A stretch of 64,000 nucleotides of DNA, taken from sequence record NC_004928.1. The stretch is one strand, 5' to 3'. Both the position numbers and the translations under genes were made by a program. The notes beneath the pieces are model-generated. The model worked only from the letters and a program-made list of their open reading frames with translations. It was not told the DNA's origin and searched no databases. The stretch is from Escherichia phage RB69. Of this stretch, positions 29,309 to 53,232 are shown one piece after another. Position 1 is the first letter of the stretch, and each line of letters opens with the position of its first letter.

Positions 29309-31396
29309 CTATCCTTGGACAAATTTAAACGGAACTGATTCTAAATCCATTAAAGATGCTAACAATTTCAAACCTTTAGGTGCGCTAGTTTTTTCTACAA
29401 ATGAAGAGAACGATACCGGCTCATCTGATTCGATTTCACCTGTCATAGCAACCACCTCACCTGTTTCCATGAGAACATCACCATCATAAATGACAGCTTC
29501 ATCTAACTGGTCTGAGGACATGACTTCAGCTTGAATAAATTTAAGGTTGGATTCTAAACCTGCACCAGTGTCAGATGACGCATCTGTAATTTTATTTATC
29601 TGCAAGAGAATGCCTCTAGGCAAAATAATTTCTTGCTCATTAGGGTGATTACTCAACTGTCCTGGATAAATCACGTTAACTTTATGAGCACCATCAATAG
29701 CCCATCCAACGTTAACACGGATTTGTTCTGGTGCATGCATAGCTGTTCTTACTTGACTAGGAGAAATAGTAACACCTTCGTCATTATTGTCAATGTTAAG
29801 CTCTTTGCGAACGTTCTTCAGGAGCAAGTCCAAGGGCAACGTTCTCTTTAAACCCACCGAAAATAATAGGAGCTTGTGAAGTGGAAACATAGTTTCTGAA
29901 GTAGAATACCTTATTTTTAACCATTGCTTCGTAAATAGGCATTCTGATAGACTGAGCTCTATATAACGTTTGTCCTTCAGGTAACGGTCTCCATTTAAAA
30001 ACGCCGAATCAAGACCATCAATAGCGCGTTTAACTTCATCTTCATCTGCAACATCGTAAAAATCTGGTTTATAACGACCTAACAACATATTATTGATATC
30101 GGTATACGCAGAAGAGGCATATTCACGAATAGCTCGTTTTTCAGCAACAGAGTATTGTTTAGGGTCCCGATTCATTGTTATATTAAAGGTGCCTCTAGCC
30201 GATTCTCGTGCATAAGTATACATCACATTAGACAAGAACGCTGATTTACGTTGTTTCCAAGTTTTTTCAGATACTTCAGCTAAAACGTCGTCGGCCAGTT
30301 GGAAATTATCACGTCTAAAATCTTCAAACCATTCGTCTTTAATAGAGTCTGCAATCTCATTTGCAGCTTCAACAAAAGCAGCTAATGCTTTAACAGATGT
30401 TGTTTTTTCAGTTTTAATTTTCTTAGCAAACTTTTCTAAAGTTGGCTTAATAACACCACCATAAGAAACTTCATCAGCAAATTTAAAGGATTCATCAATA
30501 CGATTATAAATCTTATTTTCGATATCAGCAACTAAAGTGCCTTTTGCTGTGGACGATGCTTGGGCTAGTACTATTTCATATGCTTCAGGAAGTAATTCGG
30601 CTGTAGCCGGGCCACTAACTTCTTTAGCAGAATTTTCGTATTTCTGGAATAACTCACCTTCTTGGCGGTCCGCTTCTAAAGATTGACTTGCTGCAATAGC
30701 ACGACGAGAAATTTTAGTACGAGCAATAACAGGCTTATCTTTACGTTTTTCTTCTACAGCAGCAATAGAACCAGCGATAGCCGTTTCTTTGGTGACCTTT
30801 TCGCCAGTCTTTTTACTCACATAAACTTCGCCAACATCAGAATCTACTTTCGTGTACAACTCTGTGTTAATGTTAGGGATGCCTTTAATATCTTCAATGT
30901 TGGCATTTTTACGAACCATCATCACATAGGTGTGTTTACCTGTGAATTGATACATTGCCGACAATACTTTAAAACGACCACCGGTTTTAGTAGAAACTAA
31001 ACGAGCAAGAAGAGTTTGAAGCTGCTGTCCACGTCCTTTCAATTTCTTGGTAGGGAATCGGAACAGAACTGCATCCATACGAAGAGCTTTAACCTGTTCA
31101 TATACTGTATTGAAAATGGTGTTGATTGCATCAATAGGAGCAGGACCAAGGCCATTTTTCAATTCAGCGAGATTACCCTTTTCAGATAGACTCATAATAA
31201 CAACATGAGCGTATTTGTCGCCAAGTTTAACTTGTTTTACAGCATCACCTTCGGAAAGGTAAGAGAATAAGCGAACTACGATGTTTGTATCGATATCACC
31301 AATTTTCCAGACTTGTGGAACTTTAGCTTTAGGGTTCAAATTGACGACAGGAAGACTGCCTTCAGATTCAAACACTTCATTTAATTGTTCAGACAT
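29309..31396 (-). CDS. alt: Alt ADP-ribosyltransferase; the ORF is open (695 codons) but the catalytic R/STS region appears out of frame
   Basis: Position next to gene 30 as in T4; ExE-like NEQEIILPRG in frame; LYR and YVSTS motifs present only in an alternative frame across about 29800-30008. Confidence 0.8.
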   Translation of the reverse strand: MSEQLNEVFESEGSLPVVNLNPKAKVPQVWKIGDIDTNIVVRLFSYLSEGDAVKQVKLGDKYAHVVIMSLSEKGNLAELKNGLGPAPIDAINTIFNTVYEQVKALRMDAVLFRFPTKKLKGRGQQLQTLLARLVSTKTGGRFKVLSAMYQFTGKHTYVMMVRKNANIEDIKGIPNINTELYTKVDSDVGEVYVSKKTGEKVTKETAIAGSIAAVEEKRKDKPVIARTKISRRAIAASQSLEADRQEGELFQKYENSAKEVSGPATAELLPEAYEIVLAQASSTAKGTLVADIENKIYNRIDESFKFADEVSYGGVIKPTLEKFAKKIKTEKTTSVKALAAFVEAANEIADSIKDEWFEDFRRDNFQLADDVLAEVSEKTWKQRKSAFLSNVMYTYARESARGTFNITMNRDPKQYSVAEKRAIREYASSAYTDINNMLLGRYKPDFYDVADEDEVKRAIDGLDSAFLNGDRYLKDKRYIELSLSECLFTKQWLKIRYSTSETMFPLHKLLLFSVGLKRTLPLDLLLKNVRKELNIDNNDEGVTISPSQVRTAMHAPEQIRVNVGWAIDGAHKVNVIYPGQLSNHPNEQEIILPRGILLQINKITDASSDTGAGLESNLKFIQAEVMSSDQLDEAVIYDGDVLMETGEVVAMTGEIESDEPVSFSSFVEKTSAPKGLKLLASLMDLESVPFKFVQG

Positions 31397-31416
31397 AGTG
31401 TTTTCCTTTTAGTAAT

Positions 31417-31424
31417 AATTTATA
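31417..31424 (-). promoter_or_regulatory. Late-promoter-like TATAAATT (7 of 8) upstream of alt
   Basis: Minus-strand aaaTATAAATTatta about 25 nt upstream of the alt ATG. Confidence 0.4.
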
Positions 31425-31431
31425 TTTATGC

Positions 31432-31453
31432 CAAAAAGAGCCCGAAGGCTCTT
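31432..31453 (-). terminator. Rho-independent terminator (AGAGCC-UUCG-GGCUCU plus U-run) upstream of alt
   Basis: Read on reverse complement. Confidence 0.65.
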
Positions 31454-31640
31454 AATCCACAATCTGGAGCAAAGTACGATAAACTTCAAAATTAGGGCCT
31501 TTTTCGTACTTATCAAAATTGTCCATAAAAATATGATAGGAATCGTTATTAGGAAAATCTAATACAATTTGGGAACAAGAGGTGGAAACATCACCACCAT
31601 CTTTATTAGCGACAACTACTGTTTCTAAATAAGCTTTCAT
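31452..31640 (-). CDS. Hypothetical protein (62 aa) between gene 30 and alt
   Basis: ORF with start overlapping the gene 30 stop. Confidence 0.5.
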   Translation of the reverse strand: MKAYLETVVVANKDGGDVSTSCSQIVLDFPNNDSYHIFMDNFDKYEKGPNFEVYRTLLQIVD

Positions 31641-33133
31641 TATACACCCGTCTGGTCCCAGGACCCAAATACGTCTTCAAACGAATCCGCTTCTGTTTTA
31701 TCAAAACGGAACCCTTTAATAATTGGAAGGAAAATACCTACAGTACCTTCACGGCCTTTAGAATGAACCCAACCATTACATTCACAATCAGCGATACGTC
31801 CAATCAATTTACCTTCACGAGCTTCGGACATTAATCGTTCACGGTCCAAATCATGACGCTCGTCTAAAGGAATAAGAACCTTTACACCGTCAACTGTTTT
31901 ATGAGTTGTATCTTTAAAACCTGAACCACAATCGGTTGTAATACGACGACAACGTGATACGAGTTCGACACCACCCAATTTGTTAGGGTCTTTAGAGTGT
32001 TCATAGTATCCTACAACTTCTAAAGCTATATCAATAACTTCTTTAAATTTAATTAGGTTCTTAGAGCGTTTGTTTTCCCAATATGAATCACGGTTTTTAA
32101 GGATAATACCTTCAAGACCTTGGTCAACATATTTTTTATAAACCACTTTAGCTTCGTCAAGATTACGAACTAACTGATTTTCAATTGGCTCAATTCGTTT
32201 AAAGCCTTCAGCCATATTTTCAAGAGCAGCAAAACGAACATCGTATTTCTGACCTTTAATTTTGCCATCAGAATAGACTTCATCTAAAGGAACATAGTCC
32301 CAGGCTTGAAGAACCATACCTTCAGCTTCTTTAGGAGAAATAGTCCCTTGAAGAGATTTATTTGCTAAACCGTTTGAAGTGCTACGGTCTGCAACTTGTA
32401 CTTCTTCGGATTCTTCATTATCACCAAATAAGAACGACAGGTCATTTCCTGAGCTCACAGCCTTTTTAATATCAAATGAATGATAAACTAATTCGCCGTC
32501 GATTAAAACCCCATTAGGGTGTCTTTCACGAGCTTCTTTAGTCATTTCCATTAGTTCATCTGCTAATAGGGTAAGACCATGGTATTCATTACCAGCACGA
32601 GAAAAGAATTGAACACCATCATCGCGAACTTCAGCGAAACAACGAGCACCATCTGCTTTTAATTGAGCAAATGCAGGCCATTTAATATTTTTAGTAATCA
32701 ATTTCTCATCATATGCAGATGCTAACATCTGTGGTTGCAATTGAATAAGTCCTGGCCACACCTTATTCGCGATAGACACTGAAGCACCTACTTCAAGGTC
32801 GCGCATCATTACACGACGAAGGACTTCTACATCATCAGGTTTACCGTCAGCGATATAACCCATGAGCTCTTTAATTGCAGCATTACCAGTGAGTTTACGA
32901 GTGGCTAATGTGAACTCAATAAAATCCAACATGTCATCTAATTCAAGAAGACCATATGCCTGAGACCTTTCACCTGGCCCAGGCCATTTCTTAATATAAT
33001 ACTGAATGCCACGTGCATATGTTAAACGATACACGCGTTCAAGTAATTTGTTGTCCTTATTTTTCTTAAGGATTTCCTGTTTTGTTTTAGTAGAACCGAT
33101 CGCAGCTATTTGGTTTAAAATATCTAAAATCAT
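31640..33133 (-). CDS. 30: ATP-dependent DNA ligase gp30
   Basis: 497 aa; N-terminus MILDILNQIAAIGSTK and adenylation motif KADGAR match recalled T4 DNA ligase. Confidence 0.95.
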   Translation of the reverse strand: MILDILNQIAAIGSTKTKQEILKKNKDNKLLERVYRLTYARGIQYYIKKWPGPGERSQAYGLLELDDMLDFIEFTLATRKLTGNAAIKELMGYIADGKPDDVEVLRRVMMRDLEVGASVSIANKVWPGLIQLQPQMLASAYDEKLITKNIKWPAFAQLKADGARCFAEVRDDGVQFFSRAGNEYHGLTLLADELMEMTKEARERHPNGVLIDGELVYHSFDIKKAVSSGNDLSFLFGDNEESEEVQVADRSTSNGLANKSLQGTISPKEAEGMVLQAWDYVPLDEVYSDGKIKGQKYDVRFAALENMAEGFKRIEPIENQLVRNLDEAKVVYKKYVDQGLEGIILKNRDSYWENKRSKNLIKFKEVIDIALEVVGYYEHSKDPNKLGGVELVSRCRRITTDCGSGFKDTTHKTVDGVKVLIPLDERHDLDRERLMSEAREGKLIGRIADCECNGWVHSKGREGTVGIFLPIIKGFRFDKTEADSFEDVFGSWDQTGV

Positions 33134-33399
33134 TTGATATCCTCGATTTTGGTTACGGTTCTATTATAAGCCACTTCATCTAGAAGCGATTTCAGCGTTT
33201 TCTGATAAGTGGTAATCCGTTTACCGAGTCCTTCAACATAATATTCTGAAATGTAGATGAACCCTTGTTCAACACACTCTTTAAATATTTCTGCGTCTTT
33301 TACTGAACGAAACAATGGCCGGTCTCGAAAGAACATGTTAACGTGACCGTAGTCACGCGTTGTGTTTTTGCCATCTGTAATATCATGAACTACAAACAT
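33130..33399 (-). CDS. Hypothetical protein (30.1-like)
   Basis: 89 aa ORF; 4-nt overlap with gene 30. Confidence 0.55.
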   Translation of the reverse strand: MFVVHDITDGKNTTRDYGHVNMFFRDRPLFRSVKDAEIFKECVEQGFIYISEYYVEGLGKRITTYQKTLKSLLDEVAYNRTVTKIEDIK

Positions 33400-33408
33400 A
33401 ATTAACCC

Positions 33409-34224
33409 TTAACAATTTATAGACCAAGTCCATTTAGACGAATCTAAAGGAAAGTTTTGAATCGTCCACCACGGCTGCATATCGGTTGGTCCTGGAGTTC
33501 GCCAGGTGTACGGATTTGACGGAGCGCCAATTTGATTAGGCCATGCGCCTGGACTTGTTGCACCAGATTCTTTAAGCAAATCCGCCAATCGTTTTAAAAG
33601 GTCTTCACGATCTGAATCTGAATTATGCTCGGGCGGAACCAAACGAGATTCAATATCATCCCACGTGTGTACACGTTGTGCAGTGCGAGGAATATCATCA
33701 CGTTCACCACGAGCCAACCAATAAATCGGTACATTAAGAATTTCTGCCGCATGGTCACAGTGATGAGCTAAATCGTCAACGTAACAAATCACGTTATATT
33801 TTGTTTTAGCTAGTTCGAATAATTGTTCCTTTGAAGAATCATGACCACACATCATTACTTCAGAGAAAGCGCCTGGGAACAAAGCATTCAAATTAAATTG
33901 TCTATTCAATCGAGCATCAATTGAATCACCTAGCGCCGTCACGGCTACAAAATTATAGTCTTCTTTTAGTTTATTGATAACTCGAAGAGCATCCGAATAA
34001 GGCGCTAAGTAACGAATAAAATCAGAGCGATTATATTTTTCTATTAATTGTTTACCAAGGTTATCGTCGGTATTGAACAGTTTACCAGGAGAAATAAATT
34101 TTTCGTCCTGAATCATTTTTAAAATATGTTCTAATGGAAGATTATATTTTTGGGCAAAATAAGGAAGACCAGATTGCCAGCTTAAACATACACCATCAAT
34201 ATCAGTCAAAATAGTAGGCTTCAT
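33409..34224 (-). CDS. HAD-superfamily hydrolase-like protein (30.2-like)
   Basis: 271 aa; N-terminal HAD motif I (ILTDIDGV). Confidence 0.6.
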   Translation of the reverse strand: MKPTILTDIDGVCLSWQSGLPYFAQKYNLPLEHILKMIQDEKFISPGKLFNTDDNLGKQLIEKYNRSDFIRYLAPYSDALRVINKLKEDYNFVAVTALGDSIDARLNRQFNLNALFPGAFSEVMMCGHDSSKEQLFELAKTKYNVICYVDDLAHHCDHAAEILNVPIYWLARGERDDIPRTAQRVHTWDDIESRLVPPEHNSDSDREDLLKRLADLLKESGATSPGAWPNQIGAPSNPYTWRTPGPTDMQPWWTIQNFPLDSSKWTWSINC

Positions 34225-34266
34225 AAAGAGTCTCTTAATAGGTTTAACACATCAATAAATTCAGCT

Positions 34267-34680
34267 TCAAGTTAGTATTGTATCATCTTTTGTTAGACCA
34301 CTAGCCATGCTGTGCTTCAAAATTTTTCCTTTAGAGGCTTGTAAGGCATCACGAAACCCCTTGTTTTGGATCGCGGCTTCAAAATATGCATTTGTGTATA
34401 ATTCTTTCCACGCTTCGGAGTATCTTGAAAATGGAACTCCTAACCAGAAGAGAGTCCCACGGTCCTGAGCTCTTGCATAAGACCTTCCTGCTTGCTGTGC
34501 AGCCAATCCAGACAACCCAAATATACTATGTTGTTGTTCAACATTTTTCACCTTACATCCTTGGAGAAATCCTTCAAGACCTCCGAATTGAATACCATCC
34601 ATAACAAAAGGCCATTGAGCAAAGTTACTTAATGCACATGACGGCCACTTGAAATTACTTCTAATCTCTAACTCAGGCAT
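34267..34680 (-). CDS. NADAR/YbiA-family (DUF1768) protein (30.3-like)
   Basis: SNFAQWP...DGIQF...E.F.Q pattern matches recalled E. coli YbiA (SNFAAWPIKVDGKTWPTSEHYFQ); start taken at MPELEIR. Confidence 0.65.
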   Translation of the reverse strand: MPELEIRSNFKWPSCALSNFAQWPFVMDGIQFGGLEGFLQGCKVKNVEQQHSIFGLSGLAAQQAGRSYARAQDRGTLFWLGVPFSRYSEAWKELYTNAYFEAAIQNKGFRDALQASKGKILKHSMASGLTKDDTILT

Positions 34681-34888
34681 CTTTAACACTTATAATTTCA
34701 ACATCAGCCCAATGACCATAACCAGGTATACGGTCTTCGATAGATAAATTTCCGTCATTTTTAGGCATTTTAATTGACGTAACGTATGGTTCTAAACGAT
34801 TTTCTGCGTGTGGAGAAACATCTGTCACACGATAAGTAACTTCAATCGTTTCCATACCAAACAATTTCTGGATTAATTTTTTAAGCAT
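34673..34888 (-). CDS. Hypothetical protein (71 aa)
   Basis: ORF in compact operon arrangement. Confidence 0.5.
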   Translation of the reverse strand: MLKKLIQKLFGMETIEVTYRVTDVSPHAENRLEPYVTSIKMPKNDGNLSIEDRIPGYGHWADVEIISVKDA

Positions 34889-34892
34889 TTTA

Positions 34893-35180: not shown

Positions 35181-35220
35181 AATATTTTCCTCAATTGGGA
35201 AGCCGAAGCTCCCAGTTAAA

Positions 35221-35586: not shown

Positions 35587-35614
35587 TTTATTCTCCAGAT
35601 GTTTAAGTTGTTTG

Positions 35615-35656: not shown

Positions 35657-35661
35657 ATTTT

Positions 35662-36074: not shown

Positions 36075-36103
36075 ATAGAAACACATCCTACAGGAGAGTA
36101 AAC
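36075..36103 (-). promoter_or_regulatory. Putative early promoter (GTTTAC, 17 nt, TTCTAT), a diverged copy of the 35615-35656 cassette
   Basis: About 75 percent nucleotide similarity to 35581-35661 by eye. Confidence 0.4.
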
Positions 36104-36134
36104 ATCTTTTTAAACTTTTTCTGCCCTAAACGCA

Positions 36135-36157
36135 CAAAAGGGAGACCGAAGTCTCCC
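36135..36157 (-). terminator. Rho-independent terminator (GGGAGAC-UUCG-GUCUCCC plus U-run) after the small basic-protein gene
   Basis: Same 18-nt hairpin as at 13234 and 50032. Confidence 0.75.
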
Positions 36158-36162
36158 TAAAA

Positions 36163-36342
36163 TTATGCAACAACCTTTCCAAAACGAGAAGCATCATCTC
36201 GAAGAACTGCACGTGCTCTGCGCATGATCTTCTCAACGGTTTGATTAATACGAGAGTTCGACCCACGCTTGTATCCAGCGCGTTTAGAGGTACCATCAAC
36301 TTTCTTTTCAACTGCTTTCTTTGCTTTAGCTTGTTTTGCCAT
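36163..36342 (-). CDS. Small lysine/arginine-rich protein (59 aa), missed by the ORF track
   Basis: MAKQAKAKKAVEKKVDGTSKRAGYKRGSNSRINQTVEKIMRRARAVLRDDASRFGKVVA; T4-typical codons; terminator immediately downstream. Confidence 0.55.
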   Translation of the reverse strand: MAKQAKAKKAVEKKVDGTSKRAGYKRGSNSRINQTVEKIMRRARAVLRDDASRFGKVVA

Positions 36343-36605
36343 TATAAATTCTCTTTAAATGAAAATGCAGGACTTATTGGCGTTGCCTGCGCAAGCCCTC
36401 AACGGGAACATAGGTTTTGGATATTTAACGACAGGATAACCATAAACCTCGTCATCATACCAACCACGACTTAGACAGATAACCTTTTTCTGACGCGTGA
36501 TAGTACAAAATACATTCAAGAGGTACACCGTAAAACTGCCGGGGTCTTAAAACTATAATGATTCGCAAATCATTAATCAGACAGTTCGACGGCTCCTCGA
36601 TTTAC
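36343..36605 (-). pseudogene. Probable decayed small gene (30.9-like position) between rIII and the basic-protein gene
   Basis: No intact ORF, but protein-like segments in two frames (…RIIIVLRPRQFYGVPLECILYYHASEKGYLSKS… then …GWYDDEVYGYPVVKYPKPMFPLRACAGNANKSCIFI-stop). Confidence 0.3.
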
Positions 36606-36854
36606 TTACTTCAGGGTAATAACAAAATGACGTACTGCTTTACGAGCCGCAGAAGCCAGAGGCTTAGCAAATTTCAGTTCATCTTTAGCTTCCAGTTCAG
36701 CAGCCAGAGTAGCCTGAGCAGGATTCAGATGTTTGAAATAACGCAGGATTTCCAGTGCTTCGGCTTCAACATCAATAGATGCGCCGTAATTGTCATGGCC
36801 GTTATTCCATGCATGGCGTTGCAGTTCAAGAGCGTGTTGTAATTGTTTAATCAT
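36606..36854 (-). CDS. rIII: rIII lysis-inhibition accessory protein
   Basis: 82 aa, same length and position as T4 rIII. Confidence 0.85.
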   Translation of the reverse strand: MIKQLQHALELQRHAWNNGHDNYGASIDVEAEALEILRYFKHLNPAQATLAAELEAKDELKFAKPLASAARKAVRHFVITLK

Positions 36855-36978
36855 TTTAAATTCTCAATTCGAGATAATATTTAGTAGCCACGTTCTTCTG
36901 AATTTCACCTTCTTTCGACAAGTCTCTCAGTTGTAGGCTACCGCTTAGAAGAGTGTTCTCTTCATATAGTTATTTATA

Positions 36979-37665: not shown

Positions 37666-37741
37666 ATTATTCACCACAAAAGTTTCGGATTTGTTCCCAA
37701 TTCAGAGAACGAAGATTATTACCGAGAAGTACTGAATTACT

Positions 37742-38251
37742 TCAATACCAGCTTGGTTTTAGAATGTCTGCCCAATTTTCAGGAGATCGGTTGTATAATT
37801 CTGCGTATACAACCTTTTTAATACCTGACTGCGTAATAGCTTTAGTGCAATCAGGACACGGAGAAAGCGTAGTATATAACGTAGCGCCTTCAATAGAATT
37901 ACCTTTACGAGCTGCAAACAAAATTGCATTCAATTCCGCATGGATTTCGTTATTAGCAGACCATGCACTATGAGCGGCCCGATGTTCTTTAGCCAAAACA
38001 AAATTATCTGCCCGTCCAAATGCTGTAGTGCCTTCTTTATGTCCAGCAACGATGGCCGGGCTTGATTTATTCTTCAACCAACCATTTTCGGATGCATGTT
38101 CGCAACAGTTAACGCCACCTGCGGGTGAACCATTATATCCAGTAGAGATAATGCGTCCATCTTTTTCAATGACCGCACCAACTTTCCATGAACAACATTT
38201 TGATTCTTGAGAAATCAAATAAGCAATTTGAAGATATGTGCTAGCTTTCAT
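37742..38251 (-). CDS. cd: dCMP deaminase, apparently truncated at the C-terminus by 3' frameshifts
   Basis: Zinc-binding motifs HAELNAI and PCPDC; N-terminus matches recalled T4 Cd; ORF is 169 aa versus about 193; remaining C-terminus readable in shifted frames to 37667. Confidence 0.85.
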   Translation of the reverse strand: MKASTYLQIAYLISQESKCCSWKVGAVIEKDGRIISTGYNGSPAGGVNCCEHASENGWLKNKSSPAIVAGHKEGTTAFGRADNFVLAKEHRAAHSAWSANNEIHAELNAILFAARKGNSIEGATLYTTLSPCPDCTKAITQSGIKKVVYAELYNRSPENWADILKPSWY

Positions 38252-38502
38252 TATAGTGTTCCGTATACGCGAGTTGCTTCAACTAAACCGTCACTGCCTA
38301 ATTTAAGGCTAGTAATCTGGTCACCATCTTTAGGATTAACGATTATGAGAAAAGAACGTGGAGATTCTTGAATAACTCGTAATGTTGCATCTTGGAAACG
38401 TTCAGACACCTTATTGATGAGTGCTTGAGCAAATTCTTGTACTTTAATCTGAAATTCGTGTACTGTAATTGGGGTTTCACTTAGCCTTTCGATTTCCCTC
38501 AT
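38251..38502 (-). CDS. Hypothetical protein (83 aa; cd.x)
   Basis: ORF. Confidence 0.5.
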   Translation of the reverse strand: MREIERLSETPITVHEFQIKVQEFAQALINKVSERFQDATLRVIQESPRSFLIIVNPKDGDQITSLKLGSDGLVEATRVYGTL

Positions 38503-39229: not shown

Positions 39230-40315
<1,086 letters not shown>

Positions 40316-43699: not shown

Positions 43700-44872
43700 T
43701 TAGAAATATTTTTTGTATGAATTGATTACATTTTGGTCTACATCATTATCAATTTGTGCGACAAGATAAGAACTGATTTCAACTTCCTGAGGAGCTGCTT
43801 GAACTAAATCAGAGTTCAGATATTCACGAATCCAAGGATACGGATGCTTGGTCGGAGCATCAGTAATTGGACATGGCAAACCGCACTGTTTCATACGAGA
43901 CACAGTCAAGTAATCAACAAAAGCACACATACTCTGTGTATTGATACCTGGACATGTACCGTCTTTAAAGAGGTGTGCAGCCCATTCCTTGTACTTGACT
44001 ATTAACTTCCATAAAAATGTCAACTGCTTCTTGTTCACATTCTTTAGCAATTTGAACCCACTCATCGCCATCAGTACCAGATTGAAGTTGACGGATAATG
44101 TACTGAGTACCCTGAGATGGAGTTGTTCGTCACGAGCAATGAACTTCATAATCTTTGCATTACCTTCCATAATTTCCATATTTTTATGGAAGTTGAAAGT
44201 ACATGCAAATGATACGTAAAAACGAATAGCTTCTAAGGCGTTGATAACATGCAAACAGAGATAAAGAGACTTCATTAAATCGCGCTTGGCGTTAAACATT
44301 ATTTCTTCGTACATCTCAATATCATTCTGCTGGCATGAGCCTATTGAACACTCATAAACTTCCTTAGCATTTTCCCAATTACGAGTCTTGACTAGAACAT
44401 CGTCATAATATTTACCTATTGATTCAGCTCGTTTCATGATTGCTTCGTCTAATACAATCTCATCAAATACTTTGGATGGATCGGTATAAAGATTTCGCAT
44501 AATATGAGTATATGAACGAGAGTGAATAGTTTCACTGAATGTCCATGTTGCAACCCACGTATCTAATGAAGGGTCGGAAATCAGTGCCATAAGTACCGCA
44601 GATGGGGCCCTGCCTTGGATAGAATCCAATAATGATTGATACTTAAGATTGTTTGTACAGATGTCCTGTTGGAACTGAGGAAGCTTATTGAACTGTGCAG
44701 AGTCCAACATCAAGTTTACCTCTTCGGGGCGCCAGAAAAATGACAGGATTTCTATAAGTTCTTCAAAAACTTTATGACGCTGAATATCATACCGTGCAAG
44801 ACCAAGACCAGAACCAAAGAACATCGGTTCGTTCAAAACATCGACTTGTTGTGTATTAAAAACTGTACTCAT
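43700..44872 (-). CDS. nrdB: Ribonucleotide reductase small subunit NrdB; intron-less, ORF open but about 43 codons after the RDE.LHL iron-ligand motif appear out of frame
   Basis: 390 aa ORF; in-frame IARDEQLHL then atypical codons; shifted frame gives GTQYIIRQLQSGTDGDEWVQIAKECEQEAVDIFMEVNSQVQ, resembling recalled E. coli NrdB [39 protein letters not shown]. Confidence 0.85.
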   Translation of the reverse strand: MSTVFNTQQVDVLNEPMFFGSGLGLARYDIQRHKVFEELIEILSFFWRPEEVNLMLDSAQFNKLPQFQQDICTNNLKYQSLLDSIQGRAPSAVLMALISDPSLDTWVATWTFSETIHSRSYTHIMRNLYTDPSKVFDEIVLDEAIMKRAESIGKYYDDVLVKTRNWENAKEVYECSIGSCQQNDIEMYEEIMFNAKRDLMKSLYLCLHVINALEAIRFYVSFACTFNFHKNMEIMEGNAKIMKFIARDEQLHLRVLSTLSVNFNLVLMAMSGFKLLKNVNKKQLTFLWKLIVKYKEWAAHLFKDGTCPGINTQSMCAFVDYLTVSRMKQCGLPCPITDAPTKHPYPWIREYLNSDLVQAAPQEVEISSYLVAQIDNDVDQNVINSYKKYF

Positions 44873-44927: not shown

Positions 44928-47183
44928 TTAAAGCTTACAAGCAGAGCAATCTTCAGCTTTAGGTGTTTCTAATTCATAGTCATCTGTACCTGACCCATCA
45001 CGAGTGTTATGATAGTAGAGATTTTTTCCGCCAAAGTACCAGAAGTAAAGCAGATCGTCAAGCATTACCGACATTGGCACTTTACCTTTCTCAAATACAG
45101 CAGGGTCATAATAAGTATTAGCAGAAGCAGATTGGCACACCCATTTCAACATGATAGCAACTTGGGTCAAATAAGGTTTATTACCTTTCTTAGCAAGTTT
45201 CCACGCGTAGTCGTAAAGACTCATGTTATGTTCGATATTAGGAACAACCTGTCGGAAGTTGCCTTCTTTAGATTCTTTAATACTTACAGGTCCACGAGGT
45301 GGTTCTATACCATTTGTGCTATTTGAGACTTGACTGCTTGATTCACATGGCATGAGAGCACTAAGTGTACTGTTACGAATTCCATGTTCTTTTGAGTTCA
45401 GCTCGAAGTTCTTCCAGTCACAGACGTAGTTCGGGGCTGCGATTTGGTCAATCTTTTTATTGTACCAGTCGATAGGTAATTCGCCTCTAGACCATTTAGT
45501 GTCTGAATAATACTCACAAGGTCCTTTTTCTTTGGCGAGTTTGATTGAAGCTTTGATAAGGCCATATTGCAATCTCTCGAACAATTCATGAGTCAAATAG
45601 TTAGCGTCTTCATATGAAGCAAAGTTAGAAGCTAACCATGCAGCATAGTTCGTCACACCGACACCGAGATTTCGACGCTTTTTAGCTTTTAAAGCTTCTG
45701 GAACCGGATAATCTTGATAGTCTAACAGGTTATCAAGTGCACGTACTTGTACTTCAGCAAGTTCATTAATTTTATCTTGGTCTTGCCAATCAAATTTATC
45801 TAATACAAAAGCAGATAACGTGCATAAACCAATTTCAGCATCAGGACCATTCACATCATTAGTTGGAATAGCGATTTCACAACATAAGTTACTCTGACGA
45901 ATTGGAGCTTTTTCACGAATAAACGGAGTGTAGTTATTCGTGTTATCAACAAACTGTGGATAAATTCGAGCAGTACCAGAACGTTCAGTCATGAACAATT
46001 CAAAGAGTTCTAGTGCTTTGATTCTTTTCTTTCTGATTGTTGGGTCTTTTTCAGCTTTCTCATAAAGCTCACGGAATTTATCTTGATCTTCAAAGAATGA
46101 GTAATATAGTTCGCCTGACATTTCGTGAGGGCTAAATAAAGTAATATAATCATTTTTACCAAGGCGTTCCATCATGAGGTCATTAATCTGAATTCCGTAG
46201 TCCATATGTCGAATACGGTTTTCATCCACGCCTTTGTTATTTTTCAGAACTAATAGGTTCTCTACTTCTAAGTGCCACATTGGATAATACGCTGTAGCAG
46301 CACCACCACGAATACCACCTTGAGAACAAGATTTTACTGCAGTTTGGAAATGTTTCCAGAATGGAATAACACCCGTATGTCGAACTTCACCCATACCGAT
46401 CTTAGAACCTTCTGCACGAAGCATACCAACGTTGATACCGATACCAGCTCGTTTAGAAATATATTCAATAATTGATGCTGAAGTTTTGTTAATAGATTTT
46501 AACGAATCACCGGCTTCAATAACTACACAACTAGAGAACTGGCGAGTTGGAGTACGAGCACCTGCCATAATTGGGGTTGGCAATGAAACTTGATGAGTAG
46601 AAACGGCATCATAAAAACGAATAATATGTTTCAAACGGTCATGAGTTTCGTCTTGGTGTAAGGCCATGCCAATAGCCATGATAGCAAACTGGGGAGTTTC
46701 ATAAATCTTACCAGTTGTTTTATCTTTAACCAGGTATTTTTCTTTAAGCTGCATAGCACCAGCATAAGTCAGATCAAAATCTCGCTCATGTTTAATCCGA
46801 GAATCAAGATAAATGATTTCTTCTGCAGAATATCTAGACAACAACTCAGGATCATATTTGCCTTCATTAACACAATAAGAAATATGGTCGATAAAAGCAG
46901 GCGGTTCAAACTGCCCATATACATCTTTACGAAGTGCAAACATTAGCCCTTTGGCGGCGACATACTGATAATCAGGTTCTTCGACAGAAATCGAGTTAGC
47001 TGCAACTTTAATACAAATCTTCTGGATATCTTTGGTGCTCATCCCGTCGACAAGATGGGTCTTAATTTCTTCGTACAATTCATATGGGTCGATTTGTGTT
47101 CCTTCACATTGCCAAGTTAAGACTTGAATAATTTTCTGTGCATCAAAATTTTGGGATACACCACTGCTCTTAGTTACTTGCAT
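44928..47183 (-). CDS. nrdA: Ribonucleotide reductase large subunit NrdA
   Basis: 751 aa; active-site region SNLCCEIA, C-terminal redox cysteines (CSACKL); alignable with recalled E. coli NrdA. Confidence 0.95.
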   Translation of the reverse strand: MQVTKSSGVSQNFDAQKIIQVLTWQCEGTQIDPYELYEEIKTHLVDGMSTKDIQKICIKVAANSISVEEPDYQYVAAKGLMFALRKDVYGQFEPPAFIDHISYCVNEGKYDPELLSRYSAEEIIYLDSRIKHERDFDLTYAGAMQLKEKYLVKDKTTGKIYETPQFAIMAIGMALHQDETHDRLKHIIRFYDAVSTHQVSLPTPIMAGARTPTRQFSSCVVIEAGDSLKSINKTSASIIEYISKRAGIGINVGMLRAEGSKIGMGEVRHTGVIPFWKHFQTAVKSCSQGGIRGGAATAYYPMWHLEVENLLVLKNNKGVDENRIRHMDYGIQINDLMMERLGKNDYITLFSPHEMSGELYYSFFEDQDKFRELYEKAEKDPTIRKKRIKALELFELFMTERSGTARIYPQFVDNTNNYTPFIREKAPIRQSNLCCEIAIPTNDVNGPDAEIGLCTLSAFVLDKFDWQDQDKINELAEVQVRALDNLLDYQDYPVPEALKAKKRRNLGVGVTNYAAWLASNFASYEDANYLTHELFERLQYGLIKASIKLAKEKGPCEYYSDTKWSRGELPIDWYNKKIDQIAAPNYVCDWKNFELNSKEHGIRNSTLSALMPCESSSQVSNSTNGIEPPRGPVSIKESKEGNFRQVVPNIEHNMSLYDYAWKLAKKGNKPYLTQVAIMLKWVCQSASANTYYDPAVFEKGKVPMSVMLDDLLYFWYFGGKNLYYHNTRDGSGTDDYELETPKAEDCSACKL

Positions 47184-47218
47184 ATATTCCTCAGTATAGG
47201 TTGATAGACATTACTCCA

Positions 47219-47525: not shown

Positions 47526-48386
47526 TTATACCGCCATTTTAGCTTTGATAGTTGGATGAGATTCGTAATTTTTAAGAACGAAATCAGAATGTGTCATCGT
47601 TCCAGTAACCCAGTCCATTTGGATTTTTGTAGGCCAATTCTCAAAATTACTAGGCCAATTAATTTCAAGAGAACACAACTCTTTAGGTTCACGACGAAGA
47701 ACTTCTTTGCATTGTTCTACATGATTGCTGTAGATATGCGTGTTGCCGCCTGAGAACACTAAATCACCCGGGATAAGGTTACACATCTTCGCTACAATAT
47801 GCGTCAAGGCAGCGTACGAGGCGATGTTGAACGGCAGGCCCAAGAAAACATCTACACTGCGTTGATACCATTGTAAATCAAGATGTCCATTACGCACATT
47901 AAATTGATAGAACATATGACAAGGAGGAAGAGCCATTTGGTCAATTTCGGCAGGGTTCCATGCAGAAACTATTTGTCGACGATCATTAGGAAGAGCTTTA
48001 ATACGGTCGATAGTTTTGACCAATTGGTCTACACCACCAAAATCACGCCATTGCTTACCATAAATAGGACCAAGTTCGCCGCTATGATATCCAAGGTCTT
48101 TTGCCTGATTTTCATAGTTGTCGTCCCAAATAGTTTTACCTTCAATTAGACTACCATGAGTACGAATACGCAAATCATTAACATTGGTAGAACCAGACAT
48201 GAACCACAGTAGTTCGGCAATACAAGCTTTCCATGCAAGCTTCTTGGTTGTTACTGCAGGGAATCCTTTAGTCAGGTCCCATCGCAATTTAGTTCCGAAC
48301 AGGGCAATAGTGCCTGTGCCTGTACGGTCGTCTGTTTCGTAGCCATTTTCTAGGATATCATTAATCAGGTATTGGTATTGTTTCAT
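47526..48386 (-). CDS. td: Thymidylate synthase (uninterrupted, no intron)
   Basis: 286 aa continuous ORF, same length as spliced T4 TS; active-site region PPCH present. Confidence 0.95.
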   Translation of the reverse strand: MKQYQYLINDILENGYETDDRTGTGTIALFGTKLRWDLTKGFPAVTTKKLAWKACIAELLWFMSGSTNVNDLRIRTHGSLIEGKTIWDDNYENQAKDLGYHSGELGPIYGKQWRDFGGVDQLVKTIDRIKALPNDRRQIVSAWNPAEIDQMALPPCHMFYQFNVRNGHLDLQWYQRSVDVFLGLPFNIASYAALTHIVAKMCNLIPGDLVFSGGNTHIYSNHVEQCKEVLRREPKELCSLEINWPSNFENWPTKIQMDWVTGTMTHSDFVLKNYESHPTIKAKMAV

Positions 48387-48970
48387 TTATACACGCTCTC
48401 AGTAATTTCGGTGAGTTCATCGATTCTGTAGTAATGAGATTCTACCATAGAACGTTGAAGCATAATATCTTGGACGAAATCTTTATCAAGTTGAACATCG
48501 GAATTAACACGACATTTCTTAATGATTTTAGTCATCACGATTTCATCGGCATAAGGCAGTGCTTGTTTTAATAATGCAGGACCACCAATAACCGAGACAT
48601 CAACATGTTCAGTAGAAAGTTTAAACGGTACGTCGGTTGAAGGGCTAAACAGGTTAATTTCACCACCCATTACCAAGGTAATAAATTCTGCTTGGGTGAT
48701 ATAGAACCGTGCAAGTTCATCAGTTTTAGTCCTAGGCAGTTTTCTGGCCATATCAGTGACAACCATATGAGTACGATCTGGTAGTAGACGAGGTAATGAT
48801 GCAAAAGTCTTAGCACCCATAACCATTACAGTGTTTTTAGTGCGAGCAACAAAGTTACTCATATCTTGTTTGATATGCTTCCATGGAAGTCCATCACCTA
48901 ATCCAAAAGCATATTCCAGTTTATCATCAACTGTTTTAGACGGTGCGCATGCGAATACTAATTTAAGCAT
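48383..48970 (-). CDS. frd: Dihydrofolate reductase
   Basis: 195 aa; alignable with recalled T4 DHFR; 4-nt overlap with td. Confidence 0.9.
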   Translation of the reverse strand: MLKLVFACAPSKTVDDKLEYAFGLGDGLPWKHIKQDMSNFVARTKNTVMVMGAKTFASLPRLLPDRTHMVVTDMARKLPRTKTDELARFYITQAEFITLVMGGEINLFSPSTDVPFKLSTEHVDVSVIGGPALLKQALPYADEIVMTKIIKKCRVNSDVQLDKDFVQDIMLQRSMVESHYYRIDELTEITESVYK

Positions 48971-48973
48971 TTT

Positions 48974-49222
48974 TTATTTCCTCAGATTTTTCTTAATAAC
49001 TTTCCAATCAGCTTTGAACATTTCAACGTCGGAGTGGTGAATCCAGAATCCTGCGCTTTCACCGTCTTCGTAGAGTGGACATCCATCACATTCTTCGTTC
49101 CAACCCATTTCACGTAAAGCTTCTTCAGCTTGTTCAAGGAGTTCAGCGTCTTTACCGACGATGTTGAAGTACCATTTACCTCTAACTTCTGAATCTTTGA
49201 TGCTCTGGCGTTGCAATCTCAT
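48974..49222 (-). CDS. Hypothetical protein (82 aa; frd.1-like)
   Basis: ORF. Confidence 0.5.
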   Translation of the reverse strand: MRLQRQSIKDSEVRGKWYFNIVGKDAELLEQAEEALREMGWNEECDGCPLYEDGESAGFWIHHSDVEMFKADWKVIKKNLRK

Positions 49223-49247
49223 TTTATTCTCCTCTTCACTTTTATTT

Positions 49248-49286
49248 GATAGGGCTACTATAAAATAGCCCTATCTTGTTATAAAC
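49248..49286 (-). promoter_or_regulatory. Putative early promoter (GTTTAT, 17-18 nt, TATAGT) with the -10 inside a perfect 10-bp inverted repeat (GATAGGGCTA/TAGCCCTATC); PeSL-like
   Basis: Read on reverse complement. Confidence 0.45.
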
Positions 49287-49678
49287 TACTTTTTAAAAGT
49301 TTTTTGCAAAAGTTTGATGATTTCGTCGACGTTGGTTTCATCTACGATACAATGGATTTTTGTTACACCTAAAGTTATACCTTCGTTAGTAGGTTGAGGC
49401 TTTACTAAATCTACCTCAGTAAAGTATTTGAACTCATCATAATAAATCTCAAAATAAGTTTCAATTTCACCACCGGCAGAACATACAGTACCATCTTCCA
49501 TAGTTACACTTACTACGTTTGACGTATCGCTATCATAATCAGGTTCCATTCCGTTTACAACAAAACTAGGCCCGTGGAGTTCAATCAATTTTAACATCTT
49601 AGCGTTACTGTGTGGTGCTTCTTGAACAAAGTCGTCTTTAAATAAAGGGTTAATGATATAAGATTTTCCAATTTCCAT
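49286..49678 (-). CDS. Hypothetical protein (130 aa; frd.2-like)
   Basis: ORF 49286..49777; SD GAGGAAA before the ATG at 49678 (MEIGKSY...), avoiding overlap with the upstream gene. Confidence 0.5.
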   Translation of the reverse strand: MEIGKSYIINPLFKDDFVQEAPHSNAKMLKLIELHGPSFVVNGMEPDYDSDTSNVVSVTMEDGTVCSAGGEIETYFEIYYDEFKYFTEVDLVKPQPTNEGITLGVTKIHCIVDETNVDEIIKLLQKTFKK

Positions 49679-49688
49679 TTTGATTTCC

Positions 49689-49940
49689 TCATTTGTTGAT
49701 GTGTTGTAATAAAGATTCTGCAAACGTCTCATATGATTCCAGGTGTTCTTCTTTAATGCGAACTGCATGATTATCACCCGAAGAATAGAACATCTGTACG
49801 ATAAGAGCTTCGTAATCAGACGAAATACATGCTACGTTTTCCGGCTTCAGGCATTCATTGTATGTCGCAACTGGGTCAGTGAAAGCTGCAACGTTTTTGC
49901 TACCGCAGTAATCCATACTTCTTTGAATAATAAAAATCAT
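49689..49940 (-). CDS. Hypothetical protein (83 aa; frd.3-like)
   Basis: ORF. Confidence 0.5.
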   Translation of the reverse strand: MIFIIQRSMDYCGSKNVAAFTDPVATYNECLKPENVACISSDYEALIVQMFYSSGDNHAVRIKEEHLESYETFAESLLQHINK

Positions 49941-49970
49941 TTTATTTTCCTCTCATTTGTTGATAAGTCT

Positions 49971-49999
49971 ATAGTATCATGTTTAAAGGAAAAGTAAAC
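49971..49999 (-). promoter_or_regulatory. Early promoter (GTTTAC, 17 nt, TACTAT) upstream of the frd.3-like gene
   Basis: Read on reverse complement. Confidence 0.5.
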
Positions 50000-50025
50000 A
50001 ACTTTTTTTGGCAATTTACAGATAC

Positions 50026-50049
50026 TCAAAAGGGAGACCGAAGTCTCCC
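50026..50049 (-). terminator. Rho-independent terminator downstream of gene 32 (GGGAGAC-UUCG-GUCUCCC plus U-run)
   Basis: Third identical copy of the 18-nt hairpin. Confidence 0.75.
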
Positions 50050-50056
50050 TAATTTA

Positions 50057-50956
50057 TTATAGACCAGCTAACAGGTCATCGAGGTCGCCATCGTCAGAAG
50101 ACGAGGAACTCATGAAGTCATCTTCAGTTTTTGCAGAACTAAAGGCTTCCATGTCTTTATCAAAATCGTCGAGGTCAGAAGCAACTTTATCTGCAACAGA
50201 AGCTGCTGCGGCTGCTGCACCACCCAGAGCGGCAGTACCAAGAACTTGATTAAATTTAGTATTCAATTCTTCAAACGATTTGAACTTATCTTTAGAAGTC
50301 ATTTCAGAAAGGTCAACCATTTGTTCGAACAATTCTTTCTGGAAAGATTCATCATCAATGTTTGGAATCGCAGATTGATTCAGGAATTTAGATTCGTCAT
50401 AGTTACTGAAACCAGAAACCTGTTTAACTTTCAGCACAAAGTTAGCACCTTCCCATGGACAAGTTACATCAACAGGAGTTTCACCCATTTCAGTATCAAC
50501 TGCAATCATTGCATTGATTTTGTCCCAAATCTTTTTACCAAAACGGTATTTGAATACCTTACCTTCATTATCTGGAGCTTGTGGGTCTTTAACAACCAGA
50601 ATATTAGCCCAATAAGAAGTTTTACGTTTCAGTTGAGAATATTCAGTTTTGTTGGTATTGTACAGGTCATTTTTACTAATGTACTGACATACAGGACAAG
50701 AGTCATAATCGCCGTGTGTAGATGAACAGGTTTCAATATACCATTTGCCATTTTTCTTGAACCCGTGGTTAACAAGAATTGCAAACGGAAGTGCGTCATC
50801 TGTTTTTGCCGGCAGGAAACGAATTACCGCTTGACCATTACCGGATGCATCGAGTTTCAGCTTCCATTCACCTTTATCTTCTGAAGAGAAACCTTTGTTA
50901 CCATTCAGTTTAGCCATCTGAGCTGCGAGGTCTGCGGTACTTTTACGTTTAAACAT
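50057..50956 (-). CDS. 32: Single-stranded DNA-binding protein gp32
   Basis: 299 aa; N-terminal [23 protein letters not shown] and acidic C-terminus match recalled T4 gp32. Confidence 0.95.
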
Positions 50957-51043
50957 TATATTTACCTTTATTTAGATTATTTAATTTATTTACAGTTGGT
51001 TGCTACGACACTTATACCTCGTAGCTGGTATGATTTATTTATA
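50957..51043 (-). promoter_or_regulatory. Gene 32 leader: late promoter TATAAATA (51036-51043), stem-loop, and A/U-rich unstructured region before the SD (autoregulatory operator-like)
   Basis: Minus-strand tttTATAAATAaatc, inverted repeat GCTACGAGG...GTCGTAGC, then a long AU-rich tract. Confidence 0.55.
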
Positions 51044-51072
51044 AAGTAATTTTAACACAGATAAAATAAAGC

Positions 51073-51726
51073 TTAATACTTACATGATTTTATTGTTTCT
51101 ATGAACAATTTCTTAGCAGCATTTACATCGATTTGAAGTATTTTTCGATATGCCTTTAATTTGGTAGAATAATTTTGCCAGACTAAATTGTCAGTAAGTT
51201 CGTCATGCTTATCTATAATATTCAAGAATGAATCCAACAACAAGAAGGTTTCAAACGAAATTATATTGCTTTGTAGCAATTTAAATATGTAGCTCGACTG
51301 AACTTTATTATTATAATCAAATATCTCTTGAAGCGCACTAACTTCCACTTTCTTACTGAAATAGTAGATGTTACGTACATCTTCAGCAAACGTCTCCTTG
51401 GCTTGTTTGAGACGTCCAATATATTCCCTATAGAAAACTAATGCATCAGCGTCTGATATCTCACCAATCCATGCATCTTGGTTAGCAACTAAGTTACTGA
51501 TGAATATCAAAGTGAGTTCCTTTAACTTATATTTCTCTGCTAGTTTCTCAAAGAAATATTTATCTCGGCGTTTTTGATATGCATTATCCGAAACACGCAT
51601 GCACCAGTTATATTTGATTACGTCATACCGACCATTAAAATGTTGTTTGCACATCAAGTATAGTTTGTATACCGATTTTCCATTAATATAACGTTCTCCG
51701 TCGGGAGGCATGCGTATTTTAATCAT
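51073..51726 (-). CDS. 59: Helicase loader gp59
   Basis: 217 aa, same length and position as T4 gp59. Confidence 0.9.
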   Translation of the reverse strand: MIKIRMPPDGERYINGKSVYKLYLMCKQHFNGRYDVIKYNWCMRVSDNAYQKRRDKYFFEKLAEKYKLKELTLIFISNLVANQDAWIGEISDADALVFYREYIGRLKQAKETFAEDVRNIYYFSKKVEVSALQEIFDYNNKVQSSYIFKLLQSNIISFETFLLLDSFLNIIDKHDELTDNLVWQNYSTKLKAYRKILQIDVNAAKKLFIETIKSCKY

Positions 51727-52061
51727 AATAAGAAATCTAACGTATTAGTTTTTTCACCACGAGCAACTGATGGGCGAAGCATGTTTTCGTCAATTGCTTC
51801 GCTTGTAATTTTTTCAACAATTCCTGTAGGAATAAATTTAGCAAATTGTGTTTCTGGAATAGAATTTTCTTCCAAGAAAGCAGTTGTTGCTTCTAAATAA
51901 GACATACCAAATTGTTCAACCATGGATTCGATAATGAATCCGTTTTCTTGACGGTCAAGCAATTTAGCGATATCATCTTTATCATGTTTTACTGCTAATT
52001 CTTGTTCAGATAAACCGGTCTCATCAACCGGTTTAATATCACTTAGTGAAAACTGTGTCAT
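51723..52061 (-). CDS. 33: Late transcription co-activator gp33
   Basis: 112 aa, same length as T4 gp33; synteny. Confidence 0.9.
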   Translation of the reverse strand: MTQFSLSDIKPVDETGLSEQELAVKHDKDDIAKLLDRQENGFIIESMVEQFGMSYLEATTAFLEENSIPETQFAKFIPTGIVEKITSEAIDENMLRPSVARGEKTNTLDFLL

Positions 52062-52308
52062 AAAGCTCGACTACCTCTTCGTTTTCAGCTTCAAATTGGT
52101 CACGAGCATCTTTATGATAAAGAGCTAACAAACGATTAAACATTTTTCCATCAACGCCAAGCTCTTCTTTAGCACGAGTACGAATGTCTTTAATCAGTTC
52201 ATTATAACCAGAAATTTTAAGTTTGTTATCGGAAGCTTCCTTGACTAGTTTAGCCAGTTCTTCACCATGCACATCTTGATTAAATTCAACTGCTTCTTTC
52301 TTAGCCAT
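52039..52308 (-). CDS. dsbA: dsDNA-binding protein DsbA
   Basis: ORF 52039..52326; SD GAGGTAA precedes the internal ATG (MAKKEAVEF...), giving 89 aa as in T4. Confidence 0.85.
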   Translation of the reverse strand: MAKKEAVEFNQDVHGEELAKLVKEASDNKLKISGYNELIKDIRTRAKEELGVDGKMFNRLLALYHKDARDQFEAENEEVVELYDTVFTK

Positions 52309-52359
52309 GTTTACCTCAGAATTCATTAATTACACTTGTTAATTTAGAAAGACCGGATT

Positions 52360-53232
52360 TTACAAGTATGAATAAATCTTGCCTTTAGGTTGTGGTTGAT
52401 ATGAGTTATAATACTCTATAATGGTTGAAGCAATATTATCAGGGATATAATCAAAATCAATGAGAACCAAATTTTCTTGGTACCGTTTATATTCTTCTGC
52501 ACTTAATAATACTTCAGCTTGAGAACGATCATTGGCAAGTGCTTCAATGATCGTTGTTTTCATGCTTGGAGTTCGTTCGCCTTCGACTCGAGTAAACCAG
52601 AAATCACCACGAACTCGAACAGACGCAACACCATCTTTACGGTCGCCTTTAAGAATTTTAGTCATGCAATCAATTTCGGCAGAACCATTCTTAATTTTAA
52701 CCCATTTTTTCTGCGGTGGCGACCACTGTTTAACGTTAGGGTATTTGTGTAATTGTGTAAAGTCACCATCTGATGCAACAATACACACCTTATGACCAGC
52801 TAATGACAAATATTTAGTTAATACGCCGATATGGTCATCCGCTTCGTATTTGTCAATATCCATTACAACGTATGGCATATATTTCTTAATCTCATCAACG
52901 ACTTGATGAAGTGCAGTAAAATATCCTTCCCAATCCCACTTTGAAGCTTCACGATCAGTTTTACGATTTTTCTTGTAGTAGTAAGCAAAGTCGCGTCGCC
53001 AATACCCAGAAGTAGCGTTATCCATGCACAATACAAATTTTGTATAACCTTGCTTACGGAACATCACTACGTTTTTACGAATTGAATTCAAGACTACATG
53101 ACGAACCATCGGAACGGTAATTTTATCACCATCTTCAAAGTTGTTTAATGCAGCTGCCAATGCAATGTTACTAAAGTCTGCAAGCGCAATACCTTCTTTG
53201 TAATCTTCATCCAACATCATTTCTAAATCCAT
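52360..53232 (-). CDS. rnh: RNase H (5'-3' exonuclease), C-terminus apparently truncated by a 3' frameshift
   Basis: 290 aa; N-terminus MDLEMMLDEDYKEGI matches recalled T4 RNase H; ends KIYSYL-stop while a shifted frame continues VKSGLSKLTSVINEF-stop. Confidence 0.9.
   Translation of the reverse strand: MDLEMMLDEDYKEGIALADFSNIALAAALNNFEDGDKITVPMVRHVVLNSIRKNVVMFRKQGYTKFVLCMDNATSGYWRRDFAYYYKKNRKTDREASKWDWEGYFTALHQVVDEIKKYMPYVVMDIDKYEADDHIGVLTKYLSLAGHKVCIVASDGDFTQLHKYPNVKQWSPPQKKWVKIKNGSAEIDCMTKILKGDRKDGVASVRVRGDFWFTRVEGERTPSMKTTIIEALANDRSQAEVLLSAEEYKRYQENLVLIDFDYIPDNIASTIIEYYNSYQPQPKGKIYSYL

Follow-up and report, generated by a model that had tools for sequence, protein, structure and literature searches.

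The deposited genome of Escherichia phage RB69 contains several genes whose reading frame is broken or shifted over a short stretch, raising the question of whether these anomalies belong to the phage or to its record. The question was addressed in a window of 64,000 nucleotides (nt), the whole stretch of DNA analyzed here, to which all positions refer. The window corresponds to the phage RB69 record AY303349/NC_004928 and displays ~96% identity to Mosigvirus genomes, e.g., phiC120 and PhAPEC2. A preliminary description of the window, made from its sequence alone, had listed frame anomalies in alt, cd, nrdB, the C-terminus of rnh, and a small open reading frame (ORF) at 13291-13531, had placed every anomaly in a dispensable gene, and had favored the accumulation of real mutations, with selective curation of the sequence as a fallback. 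Comparison with five to six close relatives and with re-sequenced RB69 confirms the listed anomalies in the deposited sequence, so the observation stands in this part, yet neither its completeness nor its restriction to dispensable genes holds. Because independent re-sequencing yields a normal reading frame, we regard the frame anomalies as artifacts of the deposited 2003 Sanger-era record and not as features of the phage, with a probability of about 0.85.

The RB69 record and the re-sequenced phage

The relatives used for comparison were phiC120, PhAPEC2, ECO111 5-P, ChristianSchoenbein, CEV1, ECO26.1, and FP43, with up to eight sequences per patch. Insertions and deletions (indels) were first listed base by base against phiC120 and then checked against five further relatives for uniqueness to the window; in this listing, the -1 at 13322 and +1 at 13472 between genes 23 and 24 and the +1 at 10817 and -1 at 10827 of gene 22 stood against phiC120 only. 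Gene names were taken from the T4-based notes in the PhAPEC2 annotation, while statements on essentiality follow established knowledge of T4 (Miller et al. 2003, MMBR). Contigs of re-sequenced RB69 were retrieved from the public Logan assemblies via the exact RB69 sequences of gp37, 30.2, Hoc, gp23, and Frd. They stem from two accession series comprising 12 SRA runs (SRR16629520, SRR16629523-27, SRR16634588, SRR16634590, SRR16634598, SRR29299745, SRR29299747, and SRR29299748), which probably derive from studies of RB69 escape mutants and of RB69 x T2/T4 chimeras (PMC11825919, PRJNA1120483). The RB69 of a related study was HER 158 of the Felix d'Herelle collection (PMC9391042). When tiled, the contigs span positions 1641-64000 (62.4 kb); positions 1-1640 were compared with the relatives only and show no indel relative to phiC120. 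Literature searches for errors in the RB69 record, or for its re-sequencing, found no report.

The record differs from the tiled contigs by 61 single-base differences grouped in 15 short patches and is otherwise an exact match. Once the 61 changes are made, the window agrees at 100% identity with the tiling contigs, which come from seven runs, and with further contigs, two of them from the SRR29299745-748 series. For example, a contig over 49044-64000 shows 0 mismatches and two 1-nt indels (50050 and 52366), and a contig over 23409-44227 shows 22 mismatches and nine indels, all of which lie in the patches of alt, 30.3, cd, cd.2, pseT, and nrdB or at the spacer sites 36079 and 36604. The assemblies contradict the deposited bases at all sites they cover. 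In addition, the re-sequenced base is that of all relatives at every site, so every derived state is found in the record, and the re-sequenced side of the 61 sites carries no derived change. The preliminary description had itself named reads contradicting the assembled bases as an observation that would speak against mutation accumulation in a mutagenised or long-passaged stock, and independent read assemblies from the 12 runs now provide it.

The proteins affected are private to the record as well. Alt, NrdB, NrdA, Cd, and RNase H of the window are the exact RB69 GenBank proteins AAP76109, AAP76137, AAP76138, AAP76123, and AAP76149, and each is found on one contig only (167,560 bp) among ~15 billion proteins. 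In contrast, the gp32 sequence is common to 39 contigs.

Neither the placement nor the type of the differences resembles natural divergence. While 61 random sites would be expected to form ~46 patches (minimum 36 in 5000 trials), only 15 are observed, one of them with nine differences in 19 nt and another with four consecutive wrong bases. Transitions and transversions occur at a ratio of 14:25, compared to 889:428 for the natural divergence between RB69 and PhAPEC2 (P = 9e-5), and of the in-frame coding substitutions about two in three are non-synonymous, affecting proteins with 99-100% conservation elsewhere. At the indel sites, homopolymer runs measure only 0-4 nt in the re-sequenced sequence. 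Finally, within recognized ORFs the indels of each multi-indel patch add up to 0 or +/-3; uncompensated errors are confined to the 3' ends of genes (rnh, cd), to spacers, and to the ORF between genes 23 and 24. The corrected sequence encodes a small ORF of 89 amino acids (aa), a Cd of 193 aa, an NrdB of 391 aa, and an RNase H of 305 aa.

Compensated frameshifts in alt, nrdB, and nrdA

In the record, 1-nt indels of opposite sign are paired within alt, nrdB, nrdA, gene 22, and the ORF that lies between genes 23 and 24 (Table 1). In alt, a surplus G at 29813 and the loss of an A at 29985 keep the ORF open at 695 aa with 57 residues out of frame (residues ~472-528), within the ADP-ribosyltransferase domain. 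Similarly, a surplus A at 43993 and the loss of a T at 44113 place 40 residues of NrdB (255-294) out of frame, while seven residues of NrdA read KNFELNS in the record and EELRAEL in the re-sequenced phage. In protein alignments, the three proteins are 99-100% identical to those of phiC120 outside these unrelated stretches of 57, 40, and seven residues, and the RB69 Alt and NrdB form singleton 90% clusters solely owing to the scrambled stretches.

Restoring the re-sequenced bases restores the expected domains. The Pfam profile ADPrib_exo_Tox matches Alt of the record in two pieces with 56.5 bits and re-sequenced Alt in one stretch (residues 413-610) with 97.9 bits, and the Pfam score of NrdB rises from 103 to 130 bits. 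Across residues 255-295, NrdB of the record is 3.5% identical to 16 diverse T4-like NrdBs, whereas the re-sequenced protein reaches 87%; full-length NrdB matches from IMG/VR, at most 78% identical, were used as an outgroup only. The corrected-frame stretch of Alt, scrambled in the record, includes LYRAQS and YVSTSL, which probably correspond to the Arg and STS motifs of R-S-E ADP-ribosyltransferases. Corrected Alt gave no match when searched by sequence in the PDB, and this assignment draws on the Pfam domain and on reading of the sequence.

An indication of how the record arose comes from the substitutions that accompany the two long pairs. With the true bases, the shifted stretch of alt would encounter stops at codons 476 and 508 and that of nrdB at codons 290 and 294. 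The sole substitutions within the two stretches are exactly those that convert these four wrong-frame stops to sense codons, i.e., TAA to AAA at 29971 and TAG to AAG at 29875 in alt, and TAA to TTA at 44004 and TAG to TAC at 43991 in nrdB. By exact enumeration, two random substitutions would do so with a chance of 4.2e-4 and 7.9e-4 per patch, or 3.3e-7 jointly. Because all four substitutions in the long shifted stretches remove wrong-frame stops, the pattern argues for ORF-guided finishing of poor sequence. The acridine-style plus/minus pairs proposed in the preliminary description exist in the record, yet the pairs of alt and nrdB could not have acted as suppressors, since the shifted stretches hold two stops each unless two further substitutions are present.

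The remaining patches of nrdB and nrdA are covered by one run (L063) together with the relatives, five of five in the case of nrdA. In the 5' part of nrdB (44658-44752), the net change is -3, with one residue lost and one changed. When aligned to the relatives, the nrdA pair is placed as +1 at 45390 and -1 at 45414.

Table 1 Positions at which the deposited RB69 record departs from re-sequenced RB69
Feature	Position	Strand	Description
Gene 22 (essential)	10817..10827	+	Extra A at 10817, missing C at 10827
Small ORF between genes 23 and 24	13322..13501	-	-1 at 13322, +1 at 13472, 10 substitutions
23-24 spacer and gene 24 5' end	13548..13749	+	Six substitutions; 13655 gives S8L, 13749 is synonymous
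Gene 51 (essential)	22819..22821	+	One extra codon in a short GAT repeat
alt patch	29813..29985	-	+1/-1 pair and two stop-removing substitutions (29875, 29971)
Gene 30.3 patch	34270..34530	-	Garbled bases 34270-34273; four consecutive wrong bases 34527-34530
Spacer site	36079		Single intergenic substitution; A in the record, T in all other sequences
Spacer site	36604		Intergenic A lost just past the rIII stop
cd patch	37722..37792	-	Three 1-nt insertions (37722, 37727, 37755) and one substitution (N for D, codon 154)
cd.2 patch	38410..38496	-	Three substitutions and a 1-nt insertion upstream
pseT patch	39709..39949	-	Six substitutions in 241 nt
nrdB long patch	43991..44113	-	-1/+1 pair and two stop-removing substitutions (44004, 43991)
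nrdB 5' patch	44658..44752	-	Single substitution (C72 for F); 1-nt and 2-nt deletions
nrdA patch	45393..45416	-	+1/-1 pair 23 nt apart
Spacer site	50050		Extra T downstream of gene 32; six runs disagree with the record
rnh patch	52366	-	Missing A; final 15 residues lost

Essentiality or genome region

The bias away from essential genes is real, as these genes make up 53% of the sequence and are touched by three of the 15 patches (P = 0.009), and as only one of nine frame-changing loci in coding sequence lies in an essential gene (P = 0.008). Yet the bias is better described as following the genome region than as following dispensability. The early block from alt to rnh (28957-53232, 24 kb) contains 12 of the 15 patches, and within it essential genes are not significantly spared (P = 0.20). 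Conversely, no patch falls in the dispensable rnlB-hoc-inh-uvsW-uvsY block (14950-21598, 6.6 kb), against an expectation of 3.3 (P = 0.037). It is therefore a weak premise here that sequencing error would not respect essentiality, since what the errors track is the region of the genome, i.e., the early block, rather than dispensability.

Contrary to the claim that every anomaly lies in a dispensable gene, essential genes are affected as well, namely 22 (a +1/-1 pair), 51 (an extra codon), and 24 (the change S8L). Residues 4-5 of gp22 read R-T in the record instead of E-H, and five runs and the relatives oppose the record; the extra codon of gene 51 is missing from re-sequenced RB69 and from six relatives. 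The list of genes described as reading cleanly fares no better, as it included nrdA, with its pair affecting seven residues, and pseT, with six substitutions. In T4, moreover, nrdA, td, pseT, and rnlA are dispensable, though all were on that list. Between genes 23 and 24, where we know of no T4 counterpart, the nine differences within 19 nt contribute to a patch that destroys in the record the 89-aa ORF found at 13262-13531 of the re-sequenced sequence.

A regional quality problem is in line with remarks by the RB69 sequencing group, who noted that certain regions were scarce in their shotgun plasmid libraries and could be recovered only via gap closure based on the polymerase chain reaction (PCR), presumably because such inserts are harmful to E. 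coli (PMC1524935). Early genes with host-type promoters would be obvious candidates for such under-represented regions.

Origin of the discrepancies

We infer poor coverage combined with ORF-guided finishing as the cause of the patches. In the plasmid shotgun libraries the early block was probably scarce, leaving few or poor reads from which to close it. In patches within ORFs that have a T4 homologue (alt, nrdB, nrdA, gene 22), conflicting base calls appear to have been settled in favor of an open ORF, a procedure that left behind compensated +1/-1 pairs and substitutions removing wrong-frame stops. Errors near the 3' ends of genes (cd, rnh) and in the 23-24 ORF without a T4 counterpart were left uncorrected. 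The fallback of the preliminary description, selective curation of the sequence, is favored by the ORF-preserving pattern of the record-only changes.

Several points weigh against this explanation. The re-sequenced RB69 is probably of another stock, and private mutations of the stock originally sequenced are formally possible. Only a single re-sequencing run, in addition to all relatives, reaches the nrdA pair and the 5' nrdB patch, and the extra GAT codon of gene 51, lying in a short repeat, could be a true polymorphism between stocks. In addition, passive error alone is insufficient for the stop-removing substitutions, and an undocumented editing step must be assumed. The need for that step can be judged from an alternative in which base-calling or assembly errors were purely random and the ORF-breaking ones were repaired while harmless-looking ones survived. 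Such errors would account for the uniform spectrum, the patchy placement, and the uncompensated errors at the 3' ends of genes or in an unrecognized ORF. However, a passive filter would require about a million candidate patches to yield two double stop removals (3.3e-7), and it does not predict that every multi-indel patch in a recognized ORF sums to 0 or +/-3, making purely random error an unlikely source.

Could the phage itself have carried the changes? Real frameshifts and intragenic suppressors may accumulate in the dispensable genes of a long-passaged or mutagenised RB69, with purifying selection shielding the essential genes, and the low share of patches in essential genes, the pairing of the indels, the open ORFs, and the possible descent of the re-sequenced phage from a different stock would all fit. 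Yet mutation of this kind is hard to reconcile with 61 differences in 15 tight patches, with a noise-like substitution spectrum, with a re-sequenced side lacking derived changes, and with an untouched dispensable rnlB-uvsY block. The pairs of alt and nrdB would each require two more stop-removing substitutions, from which the intermediates gain nothing, and since the scrambled stretches lie in the Alt ADP-ribosyltransferase domain and in the conserved NrdB core, restoring the frame would not restore function. We therefore find this explanation decidedly unlikely. A variant, in which the 2003 stock truly carried clustered multi-base patches, e.g., from error-prone repair tracts, and the scrambled Alt, NrdB, and NrdA ORFs were selected for continuity and not for function, has a very small probability in our view. 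Reversible slippage at hypermutable contingency loci, leaving the homopolymer tracts of two stocks out of phase, deserves hardly any credence: while contingency loci are reported in the T-even phages T2 and T4 (bioRxiv 10.1101/2025.10.21.683753) and some indels lie within runs of A or T, the true runs of 0-4 nt are far under the >=6 nt that define those loci, and the indels are accompanied by clustered substitutions.

Other laboratory sources were considered as well. Taq errors in cloned PCR products were rejected as the main source, as the spectrum is transversion-rich. Selection of inactivating mutations in toxic clones fits which genes were hit but not why their ORFs were kept open.

Other patches and neighboring genes of the early block

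Gene 30.3 (34264-34680) differs from all other cases. In addition to its patch, it carries a 1-nt insertion (34269) relative to all relatives, which shortens the protein to 137 aa compared to 152 aa in phiC120 and ChristianSchoenbein. Since re-sequenced RB69 carries the insertion also, it is a genuine RB69-specific frameshift, and the one that remains.

Further downstream, the region 36343-36605 had been described as a probable 30.9-like remnant, an identification that could not be upheld, as tblastn found no similarity of it to 30.9 and stops occur in all frames. Re-sequenced RB69 has the same sequence there apart from one base (36604). This spacer of ~260 nt between 30.9 and rIII varies among relatives by non-triplet indels, including one of 32-33 nt, and neither promoter-like nor terminator-like sites turned up when 36100-36900 was scanned.

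In cd, the record reaches a stop at 37742 and encodes 169 aa; re-sequenced Cd measures 193 aa, as do the other listed proteins of the 90% cluster. The true ATG start of cd.2 is changed to AGG at 38486 in the record, where an ATG further upstream (38502) comes into frame through the insertion at 38496, giving an ORF of 83 aa instead of the true 78 aa; aligned with the relatives, this +1 is placed at 38498. Between cd and cd.2 (window 38251), RB69 lacks a 993-nt DAHP-synthase-like (aroF-type) gene that is present at this place in phiC120, PhAPEC2, FP43, and most other relatives, while a contig of ECO111 5-P aligns straight over the junction, as RB69 does. Four of the six substitutions in pseT are non-synonymous, namely P135L, N100K, K97E, and G94V (from record to re-sequenced). 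RNase H measures 290 aa in the record and 305 aa when re-sequenced, the length of all listed full-length RNase H members besides that of RB69, and its coverage of the RNaseH_C Pfam profile extends from 1-109 to 1-124 of 124 positions.

Some further observations concern the comparison material. In essential gene 29, one base of phiC120 differs from the window and from four other relatives (window 26616; L002 26455-28213), and the phiC120 annotation of the gene is short, at 1545 nt compared to 1773 nt. The phiC120 record probably contains a frameshift error here, showing that essential genes are also hit by such errors. One contig of SRR29299745 (L064 11136-12147) is 99.2% identical to RB69 and has td interrupted by an ORF for an I-TevI-type GIY-YIG endonuclease, which RB69 lacks; a chimeric phage of RB69 with T4 or T2 would fit (cf. 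PMC11825919). Finally, two places at which Logan contigs break off are shared by many independent runs, ~13542-13554 upstream of gene 24 and ~45608-45640 inside nrdA, which could reflect a branch in the assembly graph, a local repeat, or a mixture of populations.

Relation to known systems

The compensated pairs resemble a classical genetic system, as intragenic plus/minus frameshift suppressor pairs were reportedly described in T4 rIIB by Crick, Barnett, Brenner, and Watts-Tobin in 1961. Like these, the RB69 record combines a +1 and a -1 situated 10-170 nt apart in one gene, with the sequence between them out of frame. However, true pairs of the rIIB type are present in the phage DNA and enclose a shifted stretch without nonsense codons, whereas the RB69 pairs are missing from the re-sequenced phage, and those of alt and nrdB would enclose two stops each unless further bases were changed. 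Natural decay of accessory genes in T4-like phages is matched by 30.3 alone, as the phage has none of the other anomalies. Phage contingency loci likewise involve single-base length changes that alter the frame of T-even-type genes, as in the RB69 record, yet they comprise homopolymers of at least 6 nt and are reversible population polymorphisms (bioRxiv 10.1101/2025.10.21.683753), unlike the short runs and added substitutions found here.

A further parallel lies in the errors of first-generation reference genomes, e.g., that of Vibrio fischeri ES114 (PMC2330054), where apparent frameshifts and point differences private to one Sanger-era record were found via relatives and resolved by re-sequencing, as for RB69. 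In RB69, however, two of the patches are coordinated such that the ORF retains its full length in the wrong frame, through a compensating indel plus stop-removing substitutions, which implies ORF-guided editing rather than mere miscalls.

Significance

RB69 is a model phage, and NC_004928 serves both as RefSeq and as the type sequence of the genus Mosigvirus. Within these 64 kb alone, the reference versions of Alt, NrdB, NrdA, Cd, Cd.2, PseT, RNase H, gp22, gp24, gp51, and 30.3 are each at least partly incorrect, and a conserved ORF of 89 aa is missing. Comparative genomics can be led astray by such errors, as can pseudogene calls, structure prediction, and the calling of variants against this reference. 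The analysis adds no new biology, and its value lies in the corrections to a widely used reference. More generally, the appearance of frameshifts only in dispensable genes of a phage can stem from uneven sequence quality combined with ORF-guided finishing.

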